A DNA stretch of 64,000 nt from an uncultured Phycisphaerales bacterium (GTDB lineage Bacteria; Planctomycetota; Phycisphaerae; Sedimentisphaerales; Anaerobacaceae): assembly GCA_963718665.1 (NCBI GenBank), contig OY970359.1:704001-768000 (forward strand). Reading direction: 5' to 3'. The notes under the pieces were generated by a model. It searched no databases. It was not told where the DNA came from and worked only from the letters and a program-made list of their open reading frames with translations. The number at the start of each line of letters is the position of its first letter. Positions within the stretch are counted from its first letter, which is position 1. Both the position numbers and the translations under genes were made by a program. Positions 50,990-63,211 of this stretch are shown here, one piece after another.

Positions 50990-53214
50990 ATGCCGAATGA
51001 AGAACCGCTAAAATCCAGAAGTTTTTTATCAATTTCCGTCCCTGTCGCGACGGTATTCATCTCAAGTTTCTGCCTTATGGTCCTTGAGATGGTGGCGGGC
51101 CGGCTTATAGCACGATATCTTGGCTCGTCATTATATACCTGGACTGCCGTCATAGAGGTGGTCCTCGCGGGCATCACCATAGGTTATTACATAGGCGGCC
51201 GTATAGCGGACAAGTTCAATACCCAAAAAGCGCTTCCCGTGCTGTTCATCGCCGGCTCAATCGCCTGTGTGCTGATTACTGTCTTGGGCAACGCAATACG
51301 CGAATGGCTGTTTCTCTGGCAGTTCGGCTGGCCGGTTCGGGTGTTCAGCACTATGGCGATTATGTTCCTGCTGCCCTGCACCGTGCTCGGTGCTATTACG
51401 CCCGTGGTGGCCAAAAACGCCCTCGAAAAGGGGCTGCCTAAGGGCAGAACGGTAGGCGATATATACGCCTGGGGGGCCGCCGGAAGCATCGCAGGAACAC
51501 TGGCCGCCGGCTATTACCTCATCCCGGCAATGGGAACGATGGCCCTGATTTGGCTGGTAGCGGGAATTATGGCGATACTTGCCATAATCTGCCGGCTGCG
51601 ATTCCGGCCGGCGTATCTGTGGCTGGCGGTATTCGCTTTCCTGCTTATTACGGCTGCCGCTCCGATGCAGTGGTGTATAACCCTGGGCGCAGGCCTTATG
51701 CTGCGAGAACCAATTGACCCGAGAGTGATTTACCAGGATGAAAGCCAATATTGCTACATCGCCGTCAAACAGCTTTCGGCATTTCCTGACAGGCGAATCT
51801 TTGTCCAGGATACGCTCAGGCACAGTGAAATAATTATGGGCGATATCAATGACCTGCAGTATGAATACACAATGGTTTACGAAAAAATCACCCGCCTGAT
51901 GAGTCAAAACAGGAATAACCTCAATGTAATGTTTATAGGCGGCGGCGGCTACGTCTTTCCGAGATATATCCAGGCCAACTGGCCCGGCAGCAGGATAGAC
52001 GTCGTTGAAATCGACCCCGCAGTTACTAAGGCCGCCATAGAGGAATTTGGTCTTGAAAAAGACACCACCATCAATACATTCACTATGGACGCGAGAAATT
52101 ACGTCGATAAGCTGCTCGAAGACCGGCGTAATGGTAAACCAATACCGAAATATGACTTCATTTATGAAGACGCCTTCAACGATTATTCCGTGCCGTATCA
52201 ATTGGTAACTCGTGAATTCAACGATAAAATCGCCGAGATTCTTTCCGATGACGGCGTGTATATTATGAACCTGATAGATACGCACGAAAGCACCAATTCC
52301 TCGGTGCCGTTATCAATACACTGCAGAAGACATTCCCTTACGTTTACGTCACCGCGGAACAAAACACCCACCCCGTCATACGAGAGACATTTGTCGTAGT
52401 GGCCGCTAAAAAGCCAATCGATATGATGGCCCTTCGAGACGACAAAAAAATAAAAATATGGCATCCCACCGAGTCGGAAATGGAGCATTTCAGGAAAAGT
52501 TCGCATGGAATTGTGCTTACGGACGATTACACCCCGGTGGAAAACCTGCTCGCCCCCGTAATCAATCAAAGCGCGAGAGAAGCACTGGGCCAAAGATATT
52601 TAGACGACGCAAAAACGCTTAAGGCCGAGGGTAAACTGGACCAGAGCATAGTGGCATTTGAAAACGCCTCCATAGTTAGTCCGATCCTGGCCTTTAATGA
52701 AATAGCACTGATGAAGGTGGCGCAAAACAAACCTCTGGAAGCGATTAAGGCCTTCCAAAAAGCCATTGATTCTTATGACCCCAATATCGTAAAAGAACGA
52801 TTAAGAGGCCCTATTTATCTCAATCTGGGCATACTCCTGAAGCAGATGGGCAGGGAAGAAGAATCCCGCCGGCACCTTGCCATGGCCATTGAAGAATTCC
52901 GCCTCGACCTGGCTAACGACCCGAATTCCGCCCTTACATGGTCCCGGCTTGGTGAAACTTTTGGTATGATTGGCGACCTTAACGAGGCATCAAACGCCTT
53001 CGAAAAAGCGATAGCCCTGGAACCGGGAAATATAGCCCATCGATATAATTTGGCGCAGGTGTTTGAGTTCCAGGACCGGCTGGCCGATGCCATTGCGGTA
53101 GTTCAAAAAGCGATAGAACTGGCGCCTTTATCGGGCGACAGCGATGCCACAGCAGACCTCAAAGAATATCTTAGCTCTTTAGAGCGAAAACAAGCAGCAA
53201 AAGCCCCAAAGTAA
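50990..53214 (+). pseudogene. Fused membrane domain / spermidine synthase-like / TPR protein, split by a frameshift near 52292
   Basis: FIGGGGY, VEIDP, DAR and DAF motifs; the other frame continues QFLGAVINTLQKTFPYV...ETFVVVAAKKP...LTDDYTPVE into the TPR ORF 52399-53214. Confidence 0.75.
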
Positions 53215-55189: not shown

Positions 55190-55837
55190 TTATTCCATAA
55201 CCTGCTCAGCCCTTGGCTGGGTCGGGTCGAGCTTGATAAACACCAATGGCATAGGATGGGCCTTTATCCCCTTTATATTCGGCGGGGTCGCCCCCTTAAG
55301 CCATCTGAAGCTGAACCACTGGGTGTCCCACCTGCTGCCATCTTCTGAGACGAAGCCCTCGAAATAATCCTCCATCCGGCCTTCCAGCTCGCCTGATGGC
55401 ATTTTCATTATGAAGTAATCGATTACAATTTTCGCCCGGAGCATCCGCGCATCCGGAAAATACTTCGCCTCGCAGGGGCCAAGCTTAAAGACATAGTAGG
55501 AATTATCCGGGCCGTTGGCTTCTGCTCCCCCTTGTTCAACCTTTAGCGCCCCTGCCTCAGGGTGAACAATCCTCAACATCGAGCCATTCGATTCAAACTT
55601 GATGTCCCATAAAATATCGGGTATCTCCGCCTCCCATACGCCGACCATTGATTCAGGGAACAGGCCGGATTTACCCTGGAAAAAGTCCGGTATCGCCCCG
55701 CCTTCGGGAGCATTGCCGTCCCAGATTGAATTCGGGTCCCAGGGTTTTTCCCATTGTTTAAGATTATGATTCCCGCACCCGCCGGCAAAACCAAGAGCAG
55801 ACACCGCACAAACTAAAACAATCAATTGTCGTTTCAT
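55190..55837 (-). CDS. Hypothetical lipoprotein
   Basis: Signal peptide with lipobox AGGC. Confidence 0.75.
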   Translation of the reverse strand: MKRQLIVLVCAVSALGFAGGCGNHNLKQWEKPWDPNSIWDGNAPEGGAIPDFFQGKSGLFPESMVGVWEAEIPDILWDIKFESNGSMLRIVHPEAGALKVEQGGAEANGPDNSYYVFKLGPCEAKYFPDARMLRAKIVIDYFIMKMPSGELEGRMEDYFEGFVSEDGSRWDTQWFSFRWLKGATPPNIKGIKAHPMPLVFIKLDPTQPRAEQVME

Positions 55838-55986
55838 TTTAAGTAACCTCACCTGACACCAATTAATGCTATTTTTTTAGACACTGATTTACACAGATTA
55901 ACACGGTTTTTATTTTTTTTACAGTGTTAATCCACGTCAAAAAATTACTGCGTCTAAATTATAACACACACTGCGTCTAAATAAAC

Positions 55987-56064: not shown

Positions 56065-57318
56065 TTAATTACTGACAACCGGCACCTTATTATATCCGCT
56101 AAACATGATGTATTTGGTTATGTTTGTCAATAAATAGTTCGGGTCGGCATAATGTGTGACCGCTTCACTCCATCCTGAGCCGCCCTGTGTGATTGCGCCG
56201 GAGGTATTGGAATATATTATGTTTTGTACGGCAATCGTTCCAGTCGAATTTAAGTTGTATATATCTGTACTGCTGCCTGAACCAGTCGTAGCGGCCGAAA
56301 TGACCCCATTCGAGAGTATTATGTTTCCTCCTGTTTTATTGATGTAAACGCCATATACATTACCGGCAACATTCTTTCCGGCAGACACGGAGATTGTGAA
56401 ATTTTCCACAACGACCATCGCGGAAATGCCTGTGAAATTTCCCACAACTGCCACTGTGGAAGTGCCGCCGAGAAATTCTATTCCGCTGGTCATTGCCGAC
56501 GCCGCCCCGGCATCGTTTCTGTAAACAAATATACAAACATCCCTGCATACCCCTCTGCTGTTATTATAGAATATCAAAGCTCTCATTGGCGTTATTGTTG
56601 AATATGAGTTTGAGACCTCAAGAATGCAGTTGTCCACCAAAAAATCAGTAGCGCCACCAAGAAATAATGCGTCATAGCCGGATGAAATCCTGCAATTTTT
56701 TATAATAGGTTTGACTGCGTAGGGCATATGAAGACCATCGTATGCACCCGTTATGTCACAATCTTCGATAGTGCAGTTGCTTTTACTAATTCCCACAACG
56801 GCTTGCGTGTATGGACCATTGCCCGGAGGGCCGGTAAGAATCACAGATAGATTTTTAATAACACACCCGTTTCCAAGTTTTATTCCCGGGGAGTTGTTAT
56901 AGTGTGTAATCCTGCTGGCAGACCGGCTCATACCAATAAGCGTAAGGGCTTTATTACTGGCGTCGAGGTCAACTGTTTCGTTATAATCTCCGGGCCAGAT
57001 ATAAATAGTATCACCGTCGGCAGATGCTGCTACCGCGGCGTTTATCGTCGCTAATCCTGTTTGATAACTGTGCCCCTCGTTATTATCATCGCCATCGACA
57101 CGGACATGCCAGGCATTAGGCAGATTCTGGTCAACCGCGGCAAAGCAGGGTGTTGACAATAAAACGAAAGCCAAAATTAAGATAACATGACCTTTTTGAC
57201 GGCAGGGATTTGCAAAACGCCGGAACACAGACGGGATAGCCGCCATAGAAGAAAGGATTATCTTTTCATCAAACATAATTTTTTGCACTCTTTTGTCAGA
57301 GAACTTCCGTTTAAACAA
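56065..57318 (-). CDS. Secreted right-handed beta-helix (pectin-lyase-fold) protein; start uncertain
   Basis: TINAAV...DGDTIYIWPGDYNE; repeated I.NC.I beta-helix units; hydrophobic signal-like segment. Confidence 0.78.
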   Translation of the reverse strand: MFKRKFSDKRVQKIMFDEKIILSSMAAIPSVFRRFANPCRQKGHVILILAFVLLSTPCFAAVDQNLPNAWHVRVDGDDNNEGHSYQTGLATINAAVAASADGDTIYIWPGDYNETVDLDASNKALTLIGMSRSASRITHYNNSPGIKLGNGCVIKNLSVILTGPPGNGPYTQAVVGISKSNCTIEDCDITGAYDGLHMPYAVKPIIKNCRISSGYDALFLGGATDFLVDNCILEVSNSYSTITPMRALIFYNNSRGVCRDVCIFVYRNDAGAASAMTSGIEFLGGTSTVAVVGNFTGISAMVVVENFTISVSAGKNVAGNVYGVYINKTGGNIILSNGVISAATTGSGSSTDIYNLNSTGTIAVQNIIYSNTSGAITQGGSGWSEAVTHYADPNYLLTNITKYIMFSGYNKVPVVSN

Positions 57319-57399: not shown

Positions 57400-57440
57400 A
57401 AAAAATAGAGGCAGGCCTTTTGGCCTGCCTCTCTATTTTT
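57400..57440 (-). terminator. Intrinsic (bidirectional-type) terminator
   Basis: AGAGGCAGGCC / GGCCTGCCTCT stem with A/T tails. Confidence 0.85.
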
Positions 57441-57458: not shown

Positions 57459-59018
57459 CTACGGCGTATTCGGGCAAGTCCCAGCAGGTGCGCAAACTTG
57501 TCCGGACGGGCACGTTCCGCCTGTCGGGTTGCACCAATACCAGAAGTTCGGGTCCGCTGTTGTGGATGTATCTCCGCAAAGCGGTACGCTCGATGCCGCC
57601 TTGTTGAAATATGCTCTCAAGAGTGTCAAATCATTGGAGCCAACCCAATACAACGACAACTGTTTCTTGTGGTCGAACGCAGCGCAGATGCCGGTACCAG
57701 CAGGAACCGGGTTCTTGTTGAATGCGCCTCTCAAGATAGTCAACTCATTGGAACCGACCCAATACAACGACAACTGCTGCTTGCCGTCTGCATTGCCGTG
57801 GCACTGTCTCGGATAAGCCCAGCAAGCTGGTTTGTTATTGGCTACCCAGTTGGCATAGAAGCTATTCGTTGTAGCCGTATCCTTAATGGGATAGCTGACG
57901 ATGCTAAGAGTAACCGTCGTGCCGCAACCTAATGTTCCGGCAACGGGGCTCTGAGCATATACATTGCCCACAGCCATAACGCCATCGCCGGGGACATTAA
58001 CATCCGTGCCGACAACAAAACCGGCATTGGTAAGAGCTGTAACAGCAGCGGCCCGTGTCAATCCAGTAACGACCGGCTCAGGCGGCGCAACGCCATACGT
58101 GTAGTTGACAGCGTAACCCTGAGCTTTGCAGCCGGTGTCCTGACTGATAATTACGCCCAGATGGTTGCAATCAACAACGGCTGTACCTGTGCAAGTAAAT
58201 CCTTGAGCTGTCCACACCGTACATGAGTTCGATACTATCTGGCCAACCTCGTTGGTGATGGTTTGGCCTGTCTCATACGAATAGTTGACCGTAGAACCCG
58301 GATTTACGCAGCCGGTGTTCTGGCTGCAAACCGTATTATAGGTGCATGCGCAAGTAGCTGAACCTGTGCCGTTCGGCGTAAAGCCGGCAGTTGTAAGTGC
58401 TGTATCAGCAGCCGCCTTCGTCAGACCGGTGATAGTCGGGATAGTGGTGCATGTCAGGAACACCAGCTTGGTTCCAGTCAAAACCGGCGACGGGGCAAGA
58501 GAGGCGTCCTCAAGAACTATACCGCCGCGTGTGTTGTTCAAGGCAATCGACAGGTTGCCGTCGTGTGCGCCGTTACCGTTGACGTCGAGCCGGAACAACA
58601 GGCCCGAAGTGCCCGGTGCATTGCCATCGACGTATAATGTGCCCAATTCAACGGTAATCGCGCTCGTACCCAGACCTGATTTGGTGTTCGGGTCGCTCGT
58701 CCGAGCAACCGGGGTGTAATTTGTGTCGGCCCAGTTGGGACTGGAGGCATTGATATAGTTCGCGAACTTACCGGGGAATATACCATAGCCGCCGCCCGGG
58801 ACATTGCTCTCGCCAGTGTTAAAATCACGGATATCGCTGATAGTCAGGCCGTTATCAACCGTTATATCAAGCGCAAACGCCCGCACCTTTTCAGCTGCCG
58901 AGCAATTATACCTGAACTCAACGACCCCGCTGCCCTTGTCGGTCGCTGTAACGCTTACCGTCGCCAGAACGGGCGCAGCGATAATCAGCATTGCAATAAC
59001 TAATAAAATCTTCTTCAT
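57459..59018 (-). CDS. Secreted protein: cohesin-like domain + 3 PASTA-like repeats + dockerin-like C-terminus
   Basis: Signal peptide; VRAFALDITVD...GLLFRL; P.V.GLT...A...L..AGF...V..QSP..G repeats; duplicated KQLSLYWVGSN(E/D)LT.LR..FNK. Confidence 0.75.
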   Translation of the reverse strand: MKKILLVIAMLIIAAPVLATVSVTATDKGSGVVEFRYNCSAAEKVRAFALDITVDNGLTISDIRDFNTGESNVPGGGYGIFPGKFANYINASSPNWADTNYTPVARTSDPNTKSGLGTSAITVELGTLYVDGNAPGTSGLLFRLDVNGNGAHDGNLSIALNNTRGGIVLEDASLAPSPVLTGTKLVFLTCTTIPTITGLTKAAADTALTTAGFTPNGTGSATCACTYNTVCSQNTGCVNPGSTVNYSYETGQTITNEVGQIVSNSCTVWTAQGFTCTGTAVVDCNHLGVIISQDTGCKAQGYAVNYTYGVAPPEPVVTGLTRAAAVTALTNAGFVVGTDVNVPGDGVMAVGNVYAQSPVAGTLGCGTTVTLSIVSYPIKDTATTNSFYANWVANNKPACWAYPRQCHGNADGKQQLSLYWVGSNELTILRGAFNKNPVPAGTGICAAFDHKKQLSLYWVGSNDLTLLRAYFNKAASSVPLCGDTSTTADPNFWYWCNPTGGTCPSGQVCAPAGTCPNTP

Positions 59019-59060
59019 AATCAAATCCTCCAAATTAAAGCCCCAGAGTAATTGTTTTTA

Positions 59061-59492
59061 AGCCACAGAGGACACAGAGCACACAGAGAATAATAAAAAC
59101 AGTGTTAATCTGTGTCCGCCTTTGGCGAGACCTCGCTGAAGGCGGGTAAATCCGTGTCTGATATTAACTTATCGGTATAATAGAGCACTGCCATTTGCGT
59201 AATCCGGATTATACCATATCAAAACCCTAAAGTCCAATAAAAACCAAGCCACAGGGTGTTTTTTTACCTTAGCCACAGAGCACACAGAGAGCACAGAGAA
59301 TAATAAAAATTCCAATATCGACATCTTTGCAATTTCGGATTCTTTATTCTTCCGCCGCAATACTACGGCTGGTAACCCATAGATGAAGTTATCCGACGAT
59401 GGCGAACAGGCAGAATCCTGAAACCCAAATGCTATGGGTGTTAACCCATAGTAGTTTACTTAACTCTGTGTCCTCTGTGCTCTCTGTGGCTA
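59061..59492. repeat. 9-mer CACAGAG arrays (direct and inverted) enclosing palindromic elements
   Basis: agccacagag..cacagag..cacagagaataataaaaa at ~59061 and ~59270; inverted copy at 59464-59492; taacccatag/ctatgggt palindromes between them. Confidence 0.8.
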
Positions 59493-59498
59493 AACCGC

Positions 59499-60077
59499 TT
59501 ATTTTCGACGACGCAGGAGCAGGCCGCCAAGGCCGAGTAGCGCTATTGTCATCGGCTCAGGAACCTGGTGAATGACCACGGTGTCCGATACTGCCATCAA
59601 ATAGCTGCCCTGGCCGTCATCAACGACGCTGCCAAGTATAATGGTCGAGTCGCCGACGATTTCGGCGCGATATGTAATGCCGTCAACCACTGTGCCGTTC
59701 ATAACCAGCGACGGAGTTGTTTTACCGATTAGATTGATGTAATACGTCTGGGTTACATCCAGCCAGTCATATTCATATTGACGGACGGCATTGACAATCT
59801 GGTCGCCTGCGCCCTTATGGAGTGTTATCTCGCCGGCGGTAGCGCTGAAATCCGGCCATATAACACTGCCGCCCGATACCGTTCCCAAGCTGCCTTCTGT
59901 AACGAACAAATACAGGTTCGATGGGCTTTGTTCATCAGCAGCGATGATACTGATTGTCGCTGTTTCGCCGGGGCCAATACTTGCCCCACCAGTTTTACCA
60001 TTCACATTGATTACCACCGCCGCATTGGCTATTGCGGCCATTGACAGAATCATTAAAACCGCCAATAATTTTTTCAT
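59499..60077 (-). CDS. PEP-CTERM protein (single beta-sandwich-like domain)
   Basis: Signal peptide; IHQVPEPMTIALLGLGGLLLRRRK. Confidence 0.93.
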   Translation of the reverse strand: MKKLLAVLMILSMAAIANAAVVINVNGKTGGASIGPGETATISIIAADEQSPSNLYLFVTEGSLGTVSGGSVIWPDFSATAGEITLHKGAGDQIVNAVRQYEYDWLDVTQTYYINLIGKTTPSLVMNGTVVDGITYRAEIVGDSTIILGSVVDDGQGSYLMAVSDTVVIHQVPEPMTIALLGLGGLLLRRRK

Positions 60078-60249
60078 ATTGTCCTCCTTTCAATTTTATT
60101 CGACCTTCCAGCATAGCCGGCCAACCGGGAAAGACGCCTCTCCTCGAACCGGCTAAATTTATGGAAGTACCTTCTTCGGGGAGAATTATGCCAGATTATA
60201 AACGCCGTTGTCCAGTAAAAAACAGGCCGCAGAGCGTTTTTTTTATCTT

Positions 60250-60358
60250 GGCCACAGAGGGCACAGAGGACACAGAGTGAACTTTAAAAAATAACTCTCA
60301 AAAACGAACCCGCCGAAGGCGGACAAATTCTCTCTGCTCTCTATGTGCTCTGTGGCTT
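60250..60358. repeat. Inverted 9-mer arrays (MITE-like) enclosing cccgccgaaggcggac
   Basis: gccacagagggcacagaggacacagag ... ctctgctctctatgtgctctgtggc. Confidence 0.75.
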
Positions 60359-60363
60359 AAACA

Positions 60364-60398
60364 AAAAAAAAGAGGCAAGCCAAACCGGCTTGCCTCTC
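60364..60398 (-). terminator. Intrinsic terminator
   Basis: AGAGGCAAGCC / GGCTTGCCTCT stem with an A-run on its left. Confidence 0.8.
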
Positions 60399-60430
60399 TG
60401 TAAAGCTAAAACGTGTTCTGTCGTTATCGC

Positions 60431-60994
60431 TTATTTGCTGCGACGACGAAGGAACAGACCGCCAAGACCGAGCAGACACATTGTCATCGGCTCTGGTATC
60501 TGGGTAATAGTCATGGTGCTAGTAGTGTTAAATGTTGCGCCATCTGTCTCAATAAGTGACAATGTCTGAGTACCAGCCGCAATAGCTGTATACTTAATAT
60601 TGTCAAATATTTGCTGGCCAGCAGCCAACGAGGACAACTGGAACAGTGTTACGCCAAAAAGGGGTCCGTCCTCATTTGCAGGAAACATTCCCGTAGCACC
60701 AGCATTCGTTAAGATTCCCAGACCGGAATCAACGGGAACAACAGTACCAGCGCTAAAGTCAAACGTGCCGAGCGAGGTATCACCAATTAACACAGCGTAG
60801 AAGTTATCACCAGTACCGGGCCAACCTGCACCCGCTGTAATCATAGTACCTGCCTGGACACCCAAATCACTGATCACCCCGGTCGCAGTAATTGTGGCTG
60901 CCGTGGTCACAACATCACCAGAAGTAATTACCAGCCCTGCGTTGGCCATTGTGGCCATCGACAAAACTAATGCTAAAACTAACAACTTTTTCAT
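60431..60994 (-). CDS. PEP-CTERM protein (paralog of 59499-60077)
   Basis: MKKLLVLALVLSMATMANA; ITQIPEPMTMCLLGLGGLFLRRRSK. Confidence 0.93.
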   Translation of the reverse strand: MKKLLVLALVLSMATMANAGLVITSGDVVTTAATITATGVISDLGVQAGTMITAGAGWPGTGDNFYAVLIGDTSLGTFDFSAGTVVPVDSGLGILTNAGATGMFPANEDGPLFGVTLFQLSSLAAGQQIFDNIKYTAIAAGTQTLSLIETDGATFNTTSTMTITQIPEPMTMCLLGLGGLFLRRRSK

Positions 60995-61075
60995 CTTAAT
61001 CCTCCTTACGGATTCAATAAAGTTTTTAACATTCAAAGTTAAACACATAAATCATTTACTTTCAAAAACACTCTT

Positions 61076-62899
61076 TTAAGGCGTATTCGGGCAAATCGGG
61101 GCAGTAGCGCAAGTTACTCCGGCCGGACATGCTACACCAGTCGGATTGCAGAAATACCAGAAGTTCGGGTCTGATGCGCCTGTAACTCCGCAAACTGGGA
61201 CCAAGCTTGCCGCCTTGTTGAAATATGCTCTCAAGAGTGTCAAATCATTGGAGCCAACCCAATACAACGACAACTGTTTCTTGTGGTCGAACGCAGCGCA
61301 AATGCCGGTACCAGCAGGAACCGGGTTCTTGTTGAATGCGCCTCTCAAGATAGTCAACTCATTGGAACCGACCCAATACAACGACAACTGCTCCTTGCCG
61401 TCTGCATTACCATGGCACTGTCTCGGATAAGCCCAGCACTGCGGTTTGCCAAGGCTAACCCAGTTGGCATAGAAGCTATTCGTCGTAGCAGTCGGTTTAA
61501 TCGGATAGACGACAACGCTAAGAGTTACCGTCGTACCGCAACCTGGTGTTGCTCCTACAGCCGGGCTCGTATTAAATACATTACCTACCGTGTTAACTGT
61601 AGCAGTACCCCAGCTACAAACATCCGTTGAGCTGGCGCCGGCAACAAAACCGGCATTGGTAAGAGCTGTAACAGCATTGGCCCGTGTCATACCGACAACG
61701 TTCGGAACAGCCGGCACAGAGCCATACGAGTAGTTGACAGCATAGCCCTGAGCTTTGCAGCCGGTGTCCTGGCTGATAATAAGACCAGCCGGGCAAGTAG
61801 GAACGGGTGTTCCGGTGCCATTAGCAAACCCTTGACCTGTCCACGCCGATTGCGCGTTCGCTACTGTCTGGCCAACCTCGTTGGCGATGGTTTTGCCTGC
61901 CTCATACGTATAGTTGACAACGTAACCCTGAGCTTTGCAACCGGTGTCCTGGGTGAGAACTGCGTTGTAAGTGCCCGTGCACGATACTGAAGGCGTGCCG
62001 CTGACACCAAATCCTTGAGCTATCCACGCTGCTTCCGCGGTCGCCCTGTCTACACCGACCTCGCCGGTGATGCTTTTTCCTGCCTCATACGTATAGTTGA
62101 CTGTGTGAGGCGGACTAAAGCAGCCGGTGTCAAAGCCGGGGAGAACTATGCCGTAAGTGCCCGTGCAACCTACTACAGGTGCGCCATTCGGCGTAAAGCC
62201 GGCATTGGCAGCGATAATCGCCGCATCAGCCTGCGCCTTCGTCATCCCGGTGAGATCCGGGATATTGGTGCAGGATGACGGGAAACAAACATCAATCGTA
62301 AACGGCATATTTGTCGTCACCGAGTTTGTACATACGTCCACCACTCCGCCACGCATCGCGTCAGCAGCAACAGTCAAGTTTGCGTCACCACGGAATGCAT
62401 AGGCATTGACATCGATTCTGAACAAGGTGCCTGACAGGGGCGGTGCATTCATGTCGGTTCCGCCAACAATGTTCGGAGCTCCCAGATAACCCAACTCAGC
62501 TATAATTGAGCCATAGCCGATACCGGTGCCTAATGCGCCTGGATCGTTGTAGTATGGGGTCGGGTTGTAGTTGCTGTCGCTCCAGTTGTAATTCGTCGGG
62601 GAGACGTACTGACGGAATCTGCCTGGAAATATCCCGTAACCACTCGGCGTGTTTGGATAGTTGTTTTCGCCGATGTTGAAGTCGCGGATATTACCAAAGG
62701 TGCAGCCGCTGTCAACGTTTATATCGAGAGCAAATGCCCTGATACTTAAGCCGGTGCCAGTGTAGCCGATCCTGATAATCGCCGCTATATTGCCGTCAGG
62801 AGTAGCGTATGTCCCTTCCTGGACGGCTGTGATTGTAACGCTCGCCATTAACGGTGAAACCGCTAACAGCATCGCAACAATCAGTAAAGCTTTCCTCAT
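61076..62899 (-). CDS. Secreted protein: cohesin-like domain + 4 PASTA-like repeats + dockerin-like C-terminus
   Basis: Paralog of 57459-59018; IRAFALDINVD...GTLFRI; VPNVVGMTRANAVTALTNAGF; same duplicated C-terminal motif. Confidence 0.75.
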   Translation of the reverse strand: MRKALLIVAMLLAVSPLMASVTITAVQEGTYATPDGNIAAIIRIGYTGTGLSIRAFALDINVDSGCTFGNIRDFNIGENNYPNTPSGYGIFPGRFRQYVSPTNYNWSDSNYNPTPYYNDPGALGTGIGYGSIIAELGYLGAPNIVGGTDMNAPPLSGTLFRIDVNAYAFRGDANLTVAADAMRGGVVDVCTNSVTTNMPFTIDVCFPSSCTNIPDLTGMTKAQADAAIIAANAGFTPNGAPVVGCTGTYGIVLPGFDTGCFSPPHTVNYTYEAGKSITGEVGVDRATAEAAWIAQGFGVSGTPSVSCTGTYNAVLTQDTGCKAQGYVVNYTYEAGKTIANEVGQTVANAQSAWTGQGFANGTGTPVPTCPAGLIISQDTGCKAQGYAVNYSYGSVPAVPNVVGMTRANAVTALTNAGFVAGASSTDVCSWGTATVNTVGNVFNTSPAVGATPGCGTTVTLSVVVYPIKPTATTNSFYANWVSLGKPQCWAYPRQCHGNADGKEQLSLYWVGSNELTILRGAFNKNPVPAGTGICAAFDHKKQLSLYWVGSNDLTLLRAYFNKAASLVPVCGVTGASDPNFWYFCNPTGVACPAGVTCATAPICPNTP

Positions 62900-63181
62900 A
62901 AAAACCTTCCTTTCTTTCCTTCCCCGCGGAGCCACACGCCCCACGGTGTTTTGGTTTTCCCTGCTGAAAAATACTTTCGCAAAACTACGCTCGCTCATTA
63001 ATTTCAATCTGACAATCTACTTTATCTGAGCTTGGCTACTCGGCCGGCAGGACAGCCGAAAGAAAAAGAGAAAATAGAAACTACTTATTCACTCCTCCGT
63101 TGACTCCTTTCTGCCATAAAAGGCGTAATCGTGCGAATTCAACTACTATGCACAAGGTTACTATTAGTGAAAGTCAAGTGT

Positions 63182-63211
63182 ATATTAACATAGAAAACCG
63201 TGTTTAGTCAA
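63182..63211 (-). promoter_or_regulatory. Sigma70-type promoter for the surface-protein locus
   Basis: Minus strand TTGACT-18 bp-TAATAT with extended TG; a second CACTTGACT copy lies at 63172-63180. Confidence 0.5.

Follow-up and report, generated by a model that had tools for sequence, protein, structure and literature searches.

Gene organization of the locus

The stretch of DNA analysed here, hereafter the window, comprises 64,000 nucleotides (nt) of contig OY970359.1 (positions 704,001 to 768,000) from an uncultured Phycisphaerales bacterium whose genome (G000) is a single 2.61-Mb contig. It contains four minus-strand genes, here named A, p1, p2 and B, of which A and p1 form a conserved pair that may encode a surface tether of the cohesin-dockerin type. 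Gene A (61076..62899; 607 aa), the first of this pair, encodes a signal peptide, a predicted cohesin-fold head (62285..62842; aa 20-205), a spacer of four Cys-containing PASTA repeats (61508..62269; aa about 211-464) and a dockerin-type tail with a Cys-rich extension (61079..61507; aa 465-607), within which the duplicated dockerin-type core spans about aa 497-562. Gene p1 (60431..60994; 187 aa) begins 82 nt downstream of A and encodes a single cohesin/CnaA-type beta-sandwich followed by a PEP-CTERM signal. The other two genes are accessory: p2 (59499..60077; 192 aa) encodes a PEP-CTERM protein of the same small-domain family as p1, and B (57459..59018; 519 aa) encodes a paralog of A with a head (aa 20-187), three PASTA repeats and a tail.

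The original prediction of four same-strand secreted-protein genes is confirmed by these open reading frames (ORFs), all of which have signal-peptide-like hydrophobic N-termini as judged by reading of the sequence, with no predictor. The layout proposed for the two large paralogs, with a head, Cys-rich PASTA repeats and a tail, holds for both, and their twice-repeated C-terminal motif was found as described. A and B are 52% identical over the whole protein and 42% identical between heads, with 20 and 19 cysteines, respectively; the domains of p1 and p2 share only 24% identity. Pfam and NCBIfam scans matched no catalytic family on any of the four proteins, in keeping with the proposed absence of a catalytic motif, and likewise no cohesin or dockerin family. 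Translation of A from an earlier start (63007; 643 aa) was considered and dismissed, as the stretch upstream is conserved and RNA-like with indels, and a ribosome-binding-like site precedes 62899. The named relatives are mostly from Sedimentisphaerales, Phycisphaerae or Planctomycetota, and many metagenome-assembled genomes are titled 'Pirellulales'.

Fold of the head domain

Mature B was modelled with AlphaFold2 from a 118-row alignment (predicted local distance difference test score, pLDDT, 92.9; predicted template modelling score 0.55), and the folds of A are taken from this paralog. In the model, residues 1-166 form a beta head, which is followed by three PASTA units and a two-helix tail. 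When the head was compared with 48,161 representative chains, cohesins were at the top (Z 11.5, root-mean-square deviation (rmsd) 2.5-3.1, 124-131 residues aligned), the best matches being 2vn5 (Z 11.5, rmsd 3.1, 131 aligned) and 2vo8 (Z 11.5, rmsd 2.5, 124 aligned). PASTA chains aside, one CLIPPER adhesin domain scored 9.9 and other sandwiches at most 8.8. Foldseek with the B model returned PASTA chains and then mostly cohesins (cohesin E 6e-6), and an Atlas structure search with the head ranked at 0.93 a cluster in which 45% of members are annotated as Cohesin. As modelled, the head thus matches the nine-stranded jelly roll of solved cohesins, with an insertion in place of the fifth strand, in support of the cohesin-like head first proposed.

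Sequence profiles gave no such match. PF00963 matched neither A, B nor the 118 aligned family members, and searches of Pfam, NCBIfam and PDB sequences returned no cohesin for the head or for p1; PMC11557425 describes divergent cohesins as being missed by profiles. Comparison of the head with the small-domain profile by hhalign gave a probability of 1%, with no detectable sequence homology.

The tail is a divergent dockerin

The C-terminal tail of A and B is a divergent dockerin, in line with the dockerin-like tail first proposed. The duplicated loop-helix arrangement is present, with helices at residues 404-413 and 442-451 of the B model. Ten of the 118 homologs match Dockerin_1 (PF00404) at E<=0.05, and several family members end in textbook dockerins, although neither A nor B reaches the PF00404 cut-off. 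The family profile has a weak match in the PDB to the solved dockerin 4fl4_A (E 0.22); against the canonical dockerins of the same genome, which themselves match PDB dockerins with E 4e-14, the tail gave an hhalign probability of 74% (E 2.7e-5). Similarity to dockerin clusters in the Atlas was modest (template modelling score about 0.40 over 73-80 residues), and whole-chain fold searches of B, which barely test the tail, ranked no dockerin chain alone.

The loop pattern could be fitted to 61 of 96 tails. Among these, Asp occupies loop positions 1 and 12 in 59 and 60 of the first repeats and in 60 and 61 of the second, and Asp at positions 1, 3 and 12 is kept in most. The loop segment is 8-13 residues long in most parsed tails, versus 4 in members of the canonical type. 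Similarity between the two repeats is 75% inside one protein and 29% from one protein to another (41 thinned tails). Within one genome, paralogs have a common tail type, and here the DNA of the A and B tail cores is identical at 178 of 180 nt (B aa 410-469), compared with about 60-85% in most other stretches. This near-identity suggests that the two tails have been homogenized by gene conversion toward one shared partner.

The PEP-CTERM proteins p1 and p2

Both small proteins reach the TIGR02595 cut-off for PEP-CTERM (16.1 for p1 and 22.1 for p2, against 16), and both fall just under that of Pfam. Each ends in a PEP motif, a transmembrane segment and basic residues, and the genome contains two exosortase genes over the PF09721 cut-off. 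The small paralogs had been described as single beta domains ending in PEP-CTERM, and this description stands for p1 by its fold model and for p2 by family membership: p2 matches the small-domain profile with E 6e-18, although p2 is itself a row of the alignment behind that profile. In the model of p1 (pLDDT 91.3) cohesins ranked first (2w1n, Z 11.3, rmsd 3.5, 126 aligned; next cohesin 11.1), within 1 Z of CnaA-type pilin and adhesin domains (10.8, 10.6 and 10.4), and the two classes are interleaved in Foldseek. The proposal that the PEP-CTERM domains are cohesin-like therefore holds for p1 in the form of a cohesin/CnaA-type fold, the two classes not being separated. An isopeptide-bonded CnaA pilin was considered for p1 and rejected, as the family consensus, read by eye, has no conserved Lys/Asn.

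Processing by exosortase and a surface location are inferred from the PEP-CTERM literature; PMC12188702 describes both, and still calls the export route unclear. p1 and p2 resemble the substrates described there in having a signal peptide and a PEP-TM-basic tail in a genome with exosortases. Most described substrates lack known domains and are tied to adhesion through extracellular polymeric substances, whereas p1 is encoded next to a dockerin gene in an order-wide pairing. The combination of cohesin and PEP-CTERM is already annotated elsewhere, in an Atlas cluster of 94 (PEP-CTERM 37%, Cohesin 32%, commonest in Pseudomonadota), and proteins with both cohesin and dockerin also exist as database clusters.

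Distribution and gene pairing

The head profile was found in 233 of 295 genomes of Sedimentisphaerales, including 175 of 189 in the family of the source organism, mostly as a single copy. At E<=1e-5 it was absent from a sample of 200 further genomes from across the phylum, of which two are members of the order. At 50% identity, 1,167 clusters match the profile, and none of 253 head-family proteins has two heads. Synteny in relatives agrees with the arrangement seen here: rodA lies beside the head-family gene in 66 of 78 genome loci, murJ in 50 and a lipoprotein-like gene in 34, and the downstream PEP-CTERM gene recurs. For the pairing count, 31 of 160 distinct complete genes were dropped for a short downstream flank, and a PEP-CTERM gene was found within 250 nt downstream in 96 of the 129 scorable genes, under a rule that favours the count by keeping short contigs when the partner is seen. 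Six of the 33 partnerless genes are second or third paralogs of a cluster.

In the window, the start of the rodA/ftsW-family gene (PF01098; 63535..64000, plus strand) is divergent from A, with murJ beyond it, and the conserved downstream neighbour is a lipoprotein-like gene without a Pfam family (55190..55852, minus strand). Between this gene and B lies a secreted beta-helix-like protein with weak pectinesterase/NosD matches (56065-57276, minus strand), which has a paralog at 1665902 of the same genome and adjoins the locus in only one of 78 genome loci. Farther away on the plus strand, a membrane-plus-methyltransferase-like ORF (50990-52399) overlaps a TPR-like ORF (52399-53214), both read by eye, and the two may be one frameshift-split gene.

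Domains of the family are also shuffled. Relatives contain heads fused directly to PEP-CTERM and small domains fused to a dockerin tail (L047 406-1050, L055 4242-4961 and 6535-7368, L082 1474-2304), and in the source genome a small domain is joined to four PASTA repeats. The latter protein (G000:C1:1805578-1806915, minus strand; L259) is a paralog of p1, about 50% identical, whose PASTA repeats are canonical and which has neither PEP-CTERM nor dockerin; a short ORF resembling a PEP-CTERM remnant lies nearby at 1805212-1805424.

The PASTA spacer

The PASTA repeats, four in A and three in B, exceed the Pfam cut-off (PF03793; 41 bits for A and 39 for B, against 23.2) and adopt the PASTA fold in the model, with Z 9-11 to the tandem arrays of PknB, PrkC and StkP. 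Across the family the spacer is optional. Fewer than 45 residues separate head and tail in 54 of 96 paired members, and 57-306 residues in the other 42, so PASTA is a dispensable spacer, and the variable copy number originally proposed is borne out. A further likeness to the arrays of kinases and penicillin-binding proteins (PBPs) is that the locus of A adjoins rodA-murJ; in contrast to those arrays, A and B have no kinase or PBP domain, and their repeats are Cys-rich.

Transcription units and the leader RNA

Promoter- and terminator-like consensus matches indicate that the four genes are probably arranged in three transcription units (A with p1; p2; B). A promoter-like site (-35 and extended -10; 63182..63211, minus strand) precedes A, and relatives have its -10 element in the corresponding position. 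Intrinsic-terminator-like hairpins follow p1 (60369..60399, minus strand), closing the A-p1 unit, and B (57407..57432, minus strand). The genes p2 and B have promoter-like sites of their own, from a search in which 13 consensus matches were found and 8 are expected by chance. Short REP-like intergenic repeats in both orientations lie between the four genes (59052-59108, 59259-59309, 59455-59494 and 60237-60370) and might aid recombination.

Gene A is preceded by a conserved 5' leader of about 280 nt (62900..63178, minus strand) with two covarying hairpins, a long-range helix, a possible pseudoknot and repeated GGAG motifs. It is a candidate cis-regulatory or mRNA-stabilizing RNA. Rfam has no family for it, the one match (E 0.89) being a chance match elsewhere. 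The structure of 33 pairs, drawn from the sequence of this locus itself, was compared with 49 distinct leaders: positions were 96% paired, with 52 two-sided changes versus 15.6 in shuffles, an excess that related sequences can also produce. Almost all two-sided changes fall in the two hairpins; in the long-range helix and the possible pseudoknot, changes are mostly one-sided.

From 79 metagenome loci, 56 short whole contigs were picked by hand. The first base of 34 of these lies at most 34 nt ahead of one common leader motif; a complete PEP-CTERM gene is present on 27, and 23 of those end no more than 44 nt from its stop. An assembled bicistronic transcript would have such ends, which suggests that A and p1 are co-transcribed and strongly expressed.

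Co-divergence of tail, head and partner

The question of which domain the tail binds was approached through distance correlations among head, tail and the adjacent PEP-CTERM partner. In 96 pairs, the correlation was 0.51 for tail and partner, 0.18 for head and partner and 0.17 for head and tail; with control for rodA (n=56) these values were 0.53, 0.09 and 0.28. Tail-partner correlation also exceeded head-tail correlation in spacer-less members (0.68 vs 0.49), in the 42 spacer-bearing pairs (0.43 vs -0.04) and in a thinned set (0.44 vs 0.05). All-against-all values are not independent; in 48 head-disjoint pairs, the partial correlations were 0.68 for tail and partner and 0.10 for head and tail.

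The plainest picture comes from the B-type paralog. The B-type paralogs of different genomes have heads that are 81-88% identical, tails that are 22-58% identical and proteins in the p1 position that are 21-31% identical, and 25 of 186 close-head pairs have a tail distance above 0.6. Divergence of tail and partner is already saturated at rodA differences of no more than 3-8%. Under unrelated tails p2 remains 69-78% identical, a constancy that makes it an improbable partner of the tail. The comparative evidence favours a tail-p1 contact over a tail-head contact, and from gene pairing and co-divergence it appears fairly probable that the tail of A binds p1. A complex prediction for p1 (20-166) with the A tail (465-607) scored 0.18 against a mark of 0.32 in a run without controls, and weighs neither way. 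The PEP-CTERM proteins had been proposed to nucleate or anchor the assembly: p1 is the predicted anchor of the A tail, and p2, being independent of the tail, probably does not have that role.

Dockerin-tagged proteins in the genome

The genome has 19 matches to PF00404, 16 of them over the cut-off, and a canonical dockerin motif occurs in 27 of its ORFs. Among 25 of the 27 that were scanned are two S8 peptidases, one C10 peptidase, one GH5 and one nuclease/phosphatase; others contain LamG, CBM4_9, GLUG or beta-helix domains. The description of the system as non-enzymatic is true of the four proteins, and needs qualification for the genome, as these proteins, among them the peptidases, the GH5 and lectin-like proteins, may be cargo. 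No Pfam cohesin (PF00963) was found in the genome, although divergent cohesins could escape this profile, and the conserved head is therefore the natural candidate for a receptor of the dockerin-tagged proteins. About 8 kb from the locus, a 963-aa secreted protein with a dockerin match is encoded (G000:C1:775069-777960, plus strand), the N-terminus of which looks by eye like GH9.

A model for the A-p1 pair and its alternatives

Taken together, the best overall explanation is an anchor-plus-adaptor cohesin-dockerin tether, which is held tentatively, at slightly less than an even chance. In this scheme the PEP-CTERM signal of p1 would hold the exported protein on the envelope, and the dockerin tail of A, like the near-identical tail of B, would bind the cohesin-like domain of p1. 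The PASTA repeats would form a stalk holding the cohesin-fold head off the cell, and the head would capture dockerin-tagged secreted proteins, one cargo per stalk. Anchoring would thus fall to a private, fast-changing dockerin/cohesin pair, and shared cargo would be taken by a conserved cohesin. Capture of dockerin-tagged clients is the weakest step, again at slightly less than an even chance. A broader version seems rather unlikely to us: an order-wide surface-display layer in a diderm, encoded by a rodA-linked bicistron for an exosortase-sorted cohesin anchor and a PASTA-stalk adaptor, in which anchor and tail are swapped as lock and key and the head takes any of dozens of dockerin-tagged enzymes and lectins.

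Several observations weigh against the tether, beginning with the head. In the model its fifth strand is replaced by an insertion, leaving no clear fifth strand. A mean-field analysis of 378 sequences (effective number 250, a shallow alignment) links the insertion, about 55 residues long (47-100), with outward-facing positions in strands 3, 6 and 8. The couplings A30-Y59, K94-T103, A86-T103 and N92-N142 suggest that it lies on or beside the 8-3-6-5 face. In solved complexes the 8-3-6-5 face of cohesins is the dockerin-binding face, and the usual docking face of the head may thus be covered. Most conserved in the head are residues of the insertion (G58-F66, W77, Y82, P84), along with E105 and R145. 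The missing strand and the coupled insertion keep a second reading a serious rival, if an unlikely one: the same tether with a ligand-binding or self-associating head, forming an abundant and antigenically variable coat or adhesin layer. It accords with a near-universal, mostly single-copy locus beside rodA-murJ, with the long structured leader and transcript-shaped contigs, with the saturation of tail and partner at so small a rodA difference, and with the presence of adhesin domains in the same fold class. However, the head is closer to cohesins than to adhesin folds, and such a layer would leave about 27 canonical dockerins without an evident cohesin beyond three small-domain proteins.

The remaining difficulties concern the tail-p1 contact. 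The Ca loops of A and B themselves are degenerate (Asn...Glu, Ala...Asp) and lengthened, outliers among the 61 parsed tails. The three correlations do not differ in the 28 disjoint pairs that are nearest in rodA (0.81, 0.84 and 0.84), with partials of 0.38 for tail and partner and 0.49 for head and tail, and one close pair, G008/G014, combines alike tails (distance 0.34) with very different partners (0.85). Tail and partner genes are adjacent in the DNA, so that joint transfer alone could yield their covariation. The 33 genes without an adjacent PEP-CTERM gene point the same way, the lipoprotein-like gene directly following the adaptor in 15 of 19 such loci inspected, as do the shuffled domain combinations and the chance that p1 is CnaA-like and not a cohesin. 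It is nevertheless distinctly unlikely that these are simply co-expressed surface proteins without a specific tail-p1 contact, covarying through cassette transfer: the retention of a single tail type per genome by A, B and further paralogs would be hard to account for if they had no partner in common, and p2, between p1 and B, is conserved while both flanking tails change together. Least probable is the head-to-tail polymer of A and B originally proposed, in which the PEP-CTERM proteins would nucleate filaments or a lattice. Each chain does have one cohesin-fold head and one dockerin tail, and never two heads; the internal likeness of the tail repeats means that both halves are probably usable, and head-tail correlation is appreciable in the spacer-less subset and the 28 disjoint pairs. 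Nonetheless, unrelated tails are found on heads that are almost the same, and in most tests the divergence of head and tail shows weak coupling although they share one chain, so the polymer is not supported; one tail would also have to bind two heads as unlike as those of A and B, correlation vanishes in the spacer-bearing pairs, and the spacer-less forms could cap themselves intramolecularly. A polymorphic toxin-immunity cassette was also considered and ruled out, as the variable C-terminus is dockerin-type and the neighbour has export and sorting signals.

Comparison with known systems

Adaptor and anchoring scaffoldins are exemplified by ScaC and ScaE of Ruminococcus flavefaciens and by CipA-SdbA. 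The structural matches obtained here include ScaC and ScaE cohesins, and, as in complex cellulosomes, the genome encodes many dockerin-tagged secreted proteins. By the account in PMC11557425, A and B are built like a monovalent adaptor scaffoldin, with one cohesin and one dockerin, and p1 like a non-SLH anchoring scaffoldin, with a single cohesin-like domain and a sorting signal. The A-p1 family differs in its planctomycete host, in a PEP-CTERM/exosortase signal instead of SLH or LPXTG, in its PASTA spacer and Cys-flanked dockerin with long loop inserts, and in its hypervariable tail and partner and mostly non-cellulolytic cargo. Of the cellulosome-like lattice first envisaged, the cohesin- and dockerin-type parts are found in A, B and p1, and the hallmarks of a strict cellulosome are not: no multi-cohesin scaffoldin was found (0/253 two-head proteins; no PF00963 in the genome, a profile that divergent cohesins elsewhere could escape), and one GH5 among the 25 scanned ORFs falls short of many dockerin-tagged cellulases. 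For Sedimentisphaerales, the passages of PMC11557425 on this subject mention only a two-cohesin protein in Limihaloglobus.

Another parallel is the 'planctosome' of Nemodlikiaceae, which is described in PMC6461901 as a planctomycete non-cellulosomal system with dockerin-tagged peptidases and an adaptor of dockerin, spacer and cohesin; it is a purely genomic proposal, as is ours. Its anchor is given there as a 2,210-aa lamin-tail/P-domain/TSP protein and its adaptor as dockerin-hyaline-cohesin, whereas the A-p1 anchor is a PEP-CTERM protein of about 190 aa and the adaptor is cohesin-PASTA-dockerin. None of the planctosome families (lamin-tail/P-domain/TSP, hyaline) is present on A, B, p1 or p2, no genome-wide search for such an anchor having been made. 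PMC8542988 contains a similar genomic proposal for Ca. Stygibacter with another anchor. A literature search that covered few subscription papers returned nothing joining PEP-CTERM with cohesin and no title on this locus.

Planctomycete genomes encode many dockerin-tagged secreted proteins and few or no recognizable cohesins, and for most PEP-CTERM proteins a partner is not known. To both problems the A-p1 locus suggests a solution that can be tested, in an anaerobic order that is widespread. It also supplies a cohesin-fold family undetected by Pfam, what looks like an anchor, and a naturally occurring collection of divergent tail/partner pairs. If these pairs are orthogonal, they would be useful parts for designed enzyme scaffolds. 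An order-wide display layer, if true, would explain the orphan dockerins, give a PEP-CTERM protein a defined partner and bring with it an undescribed structured leader RNA of its own.

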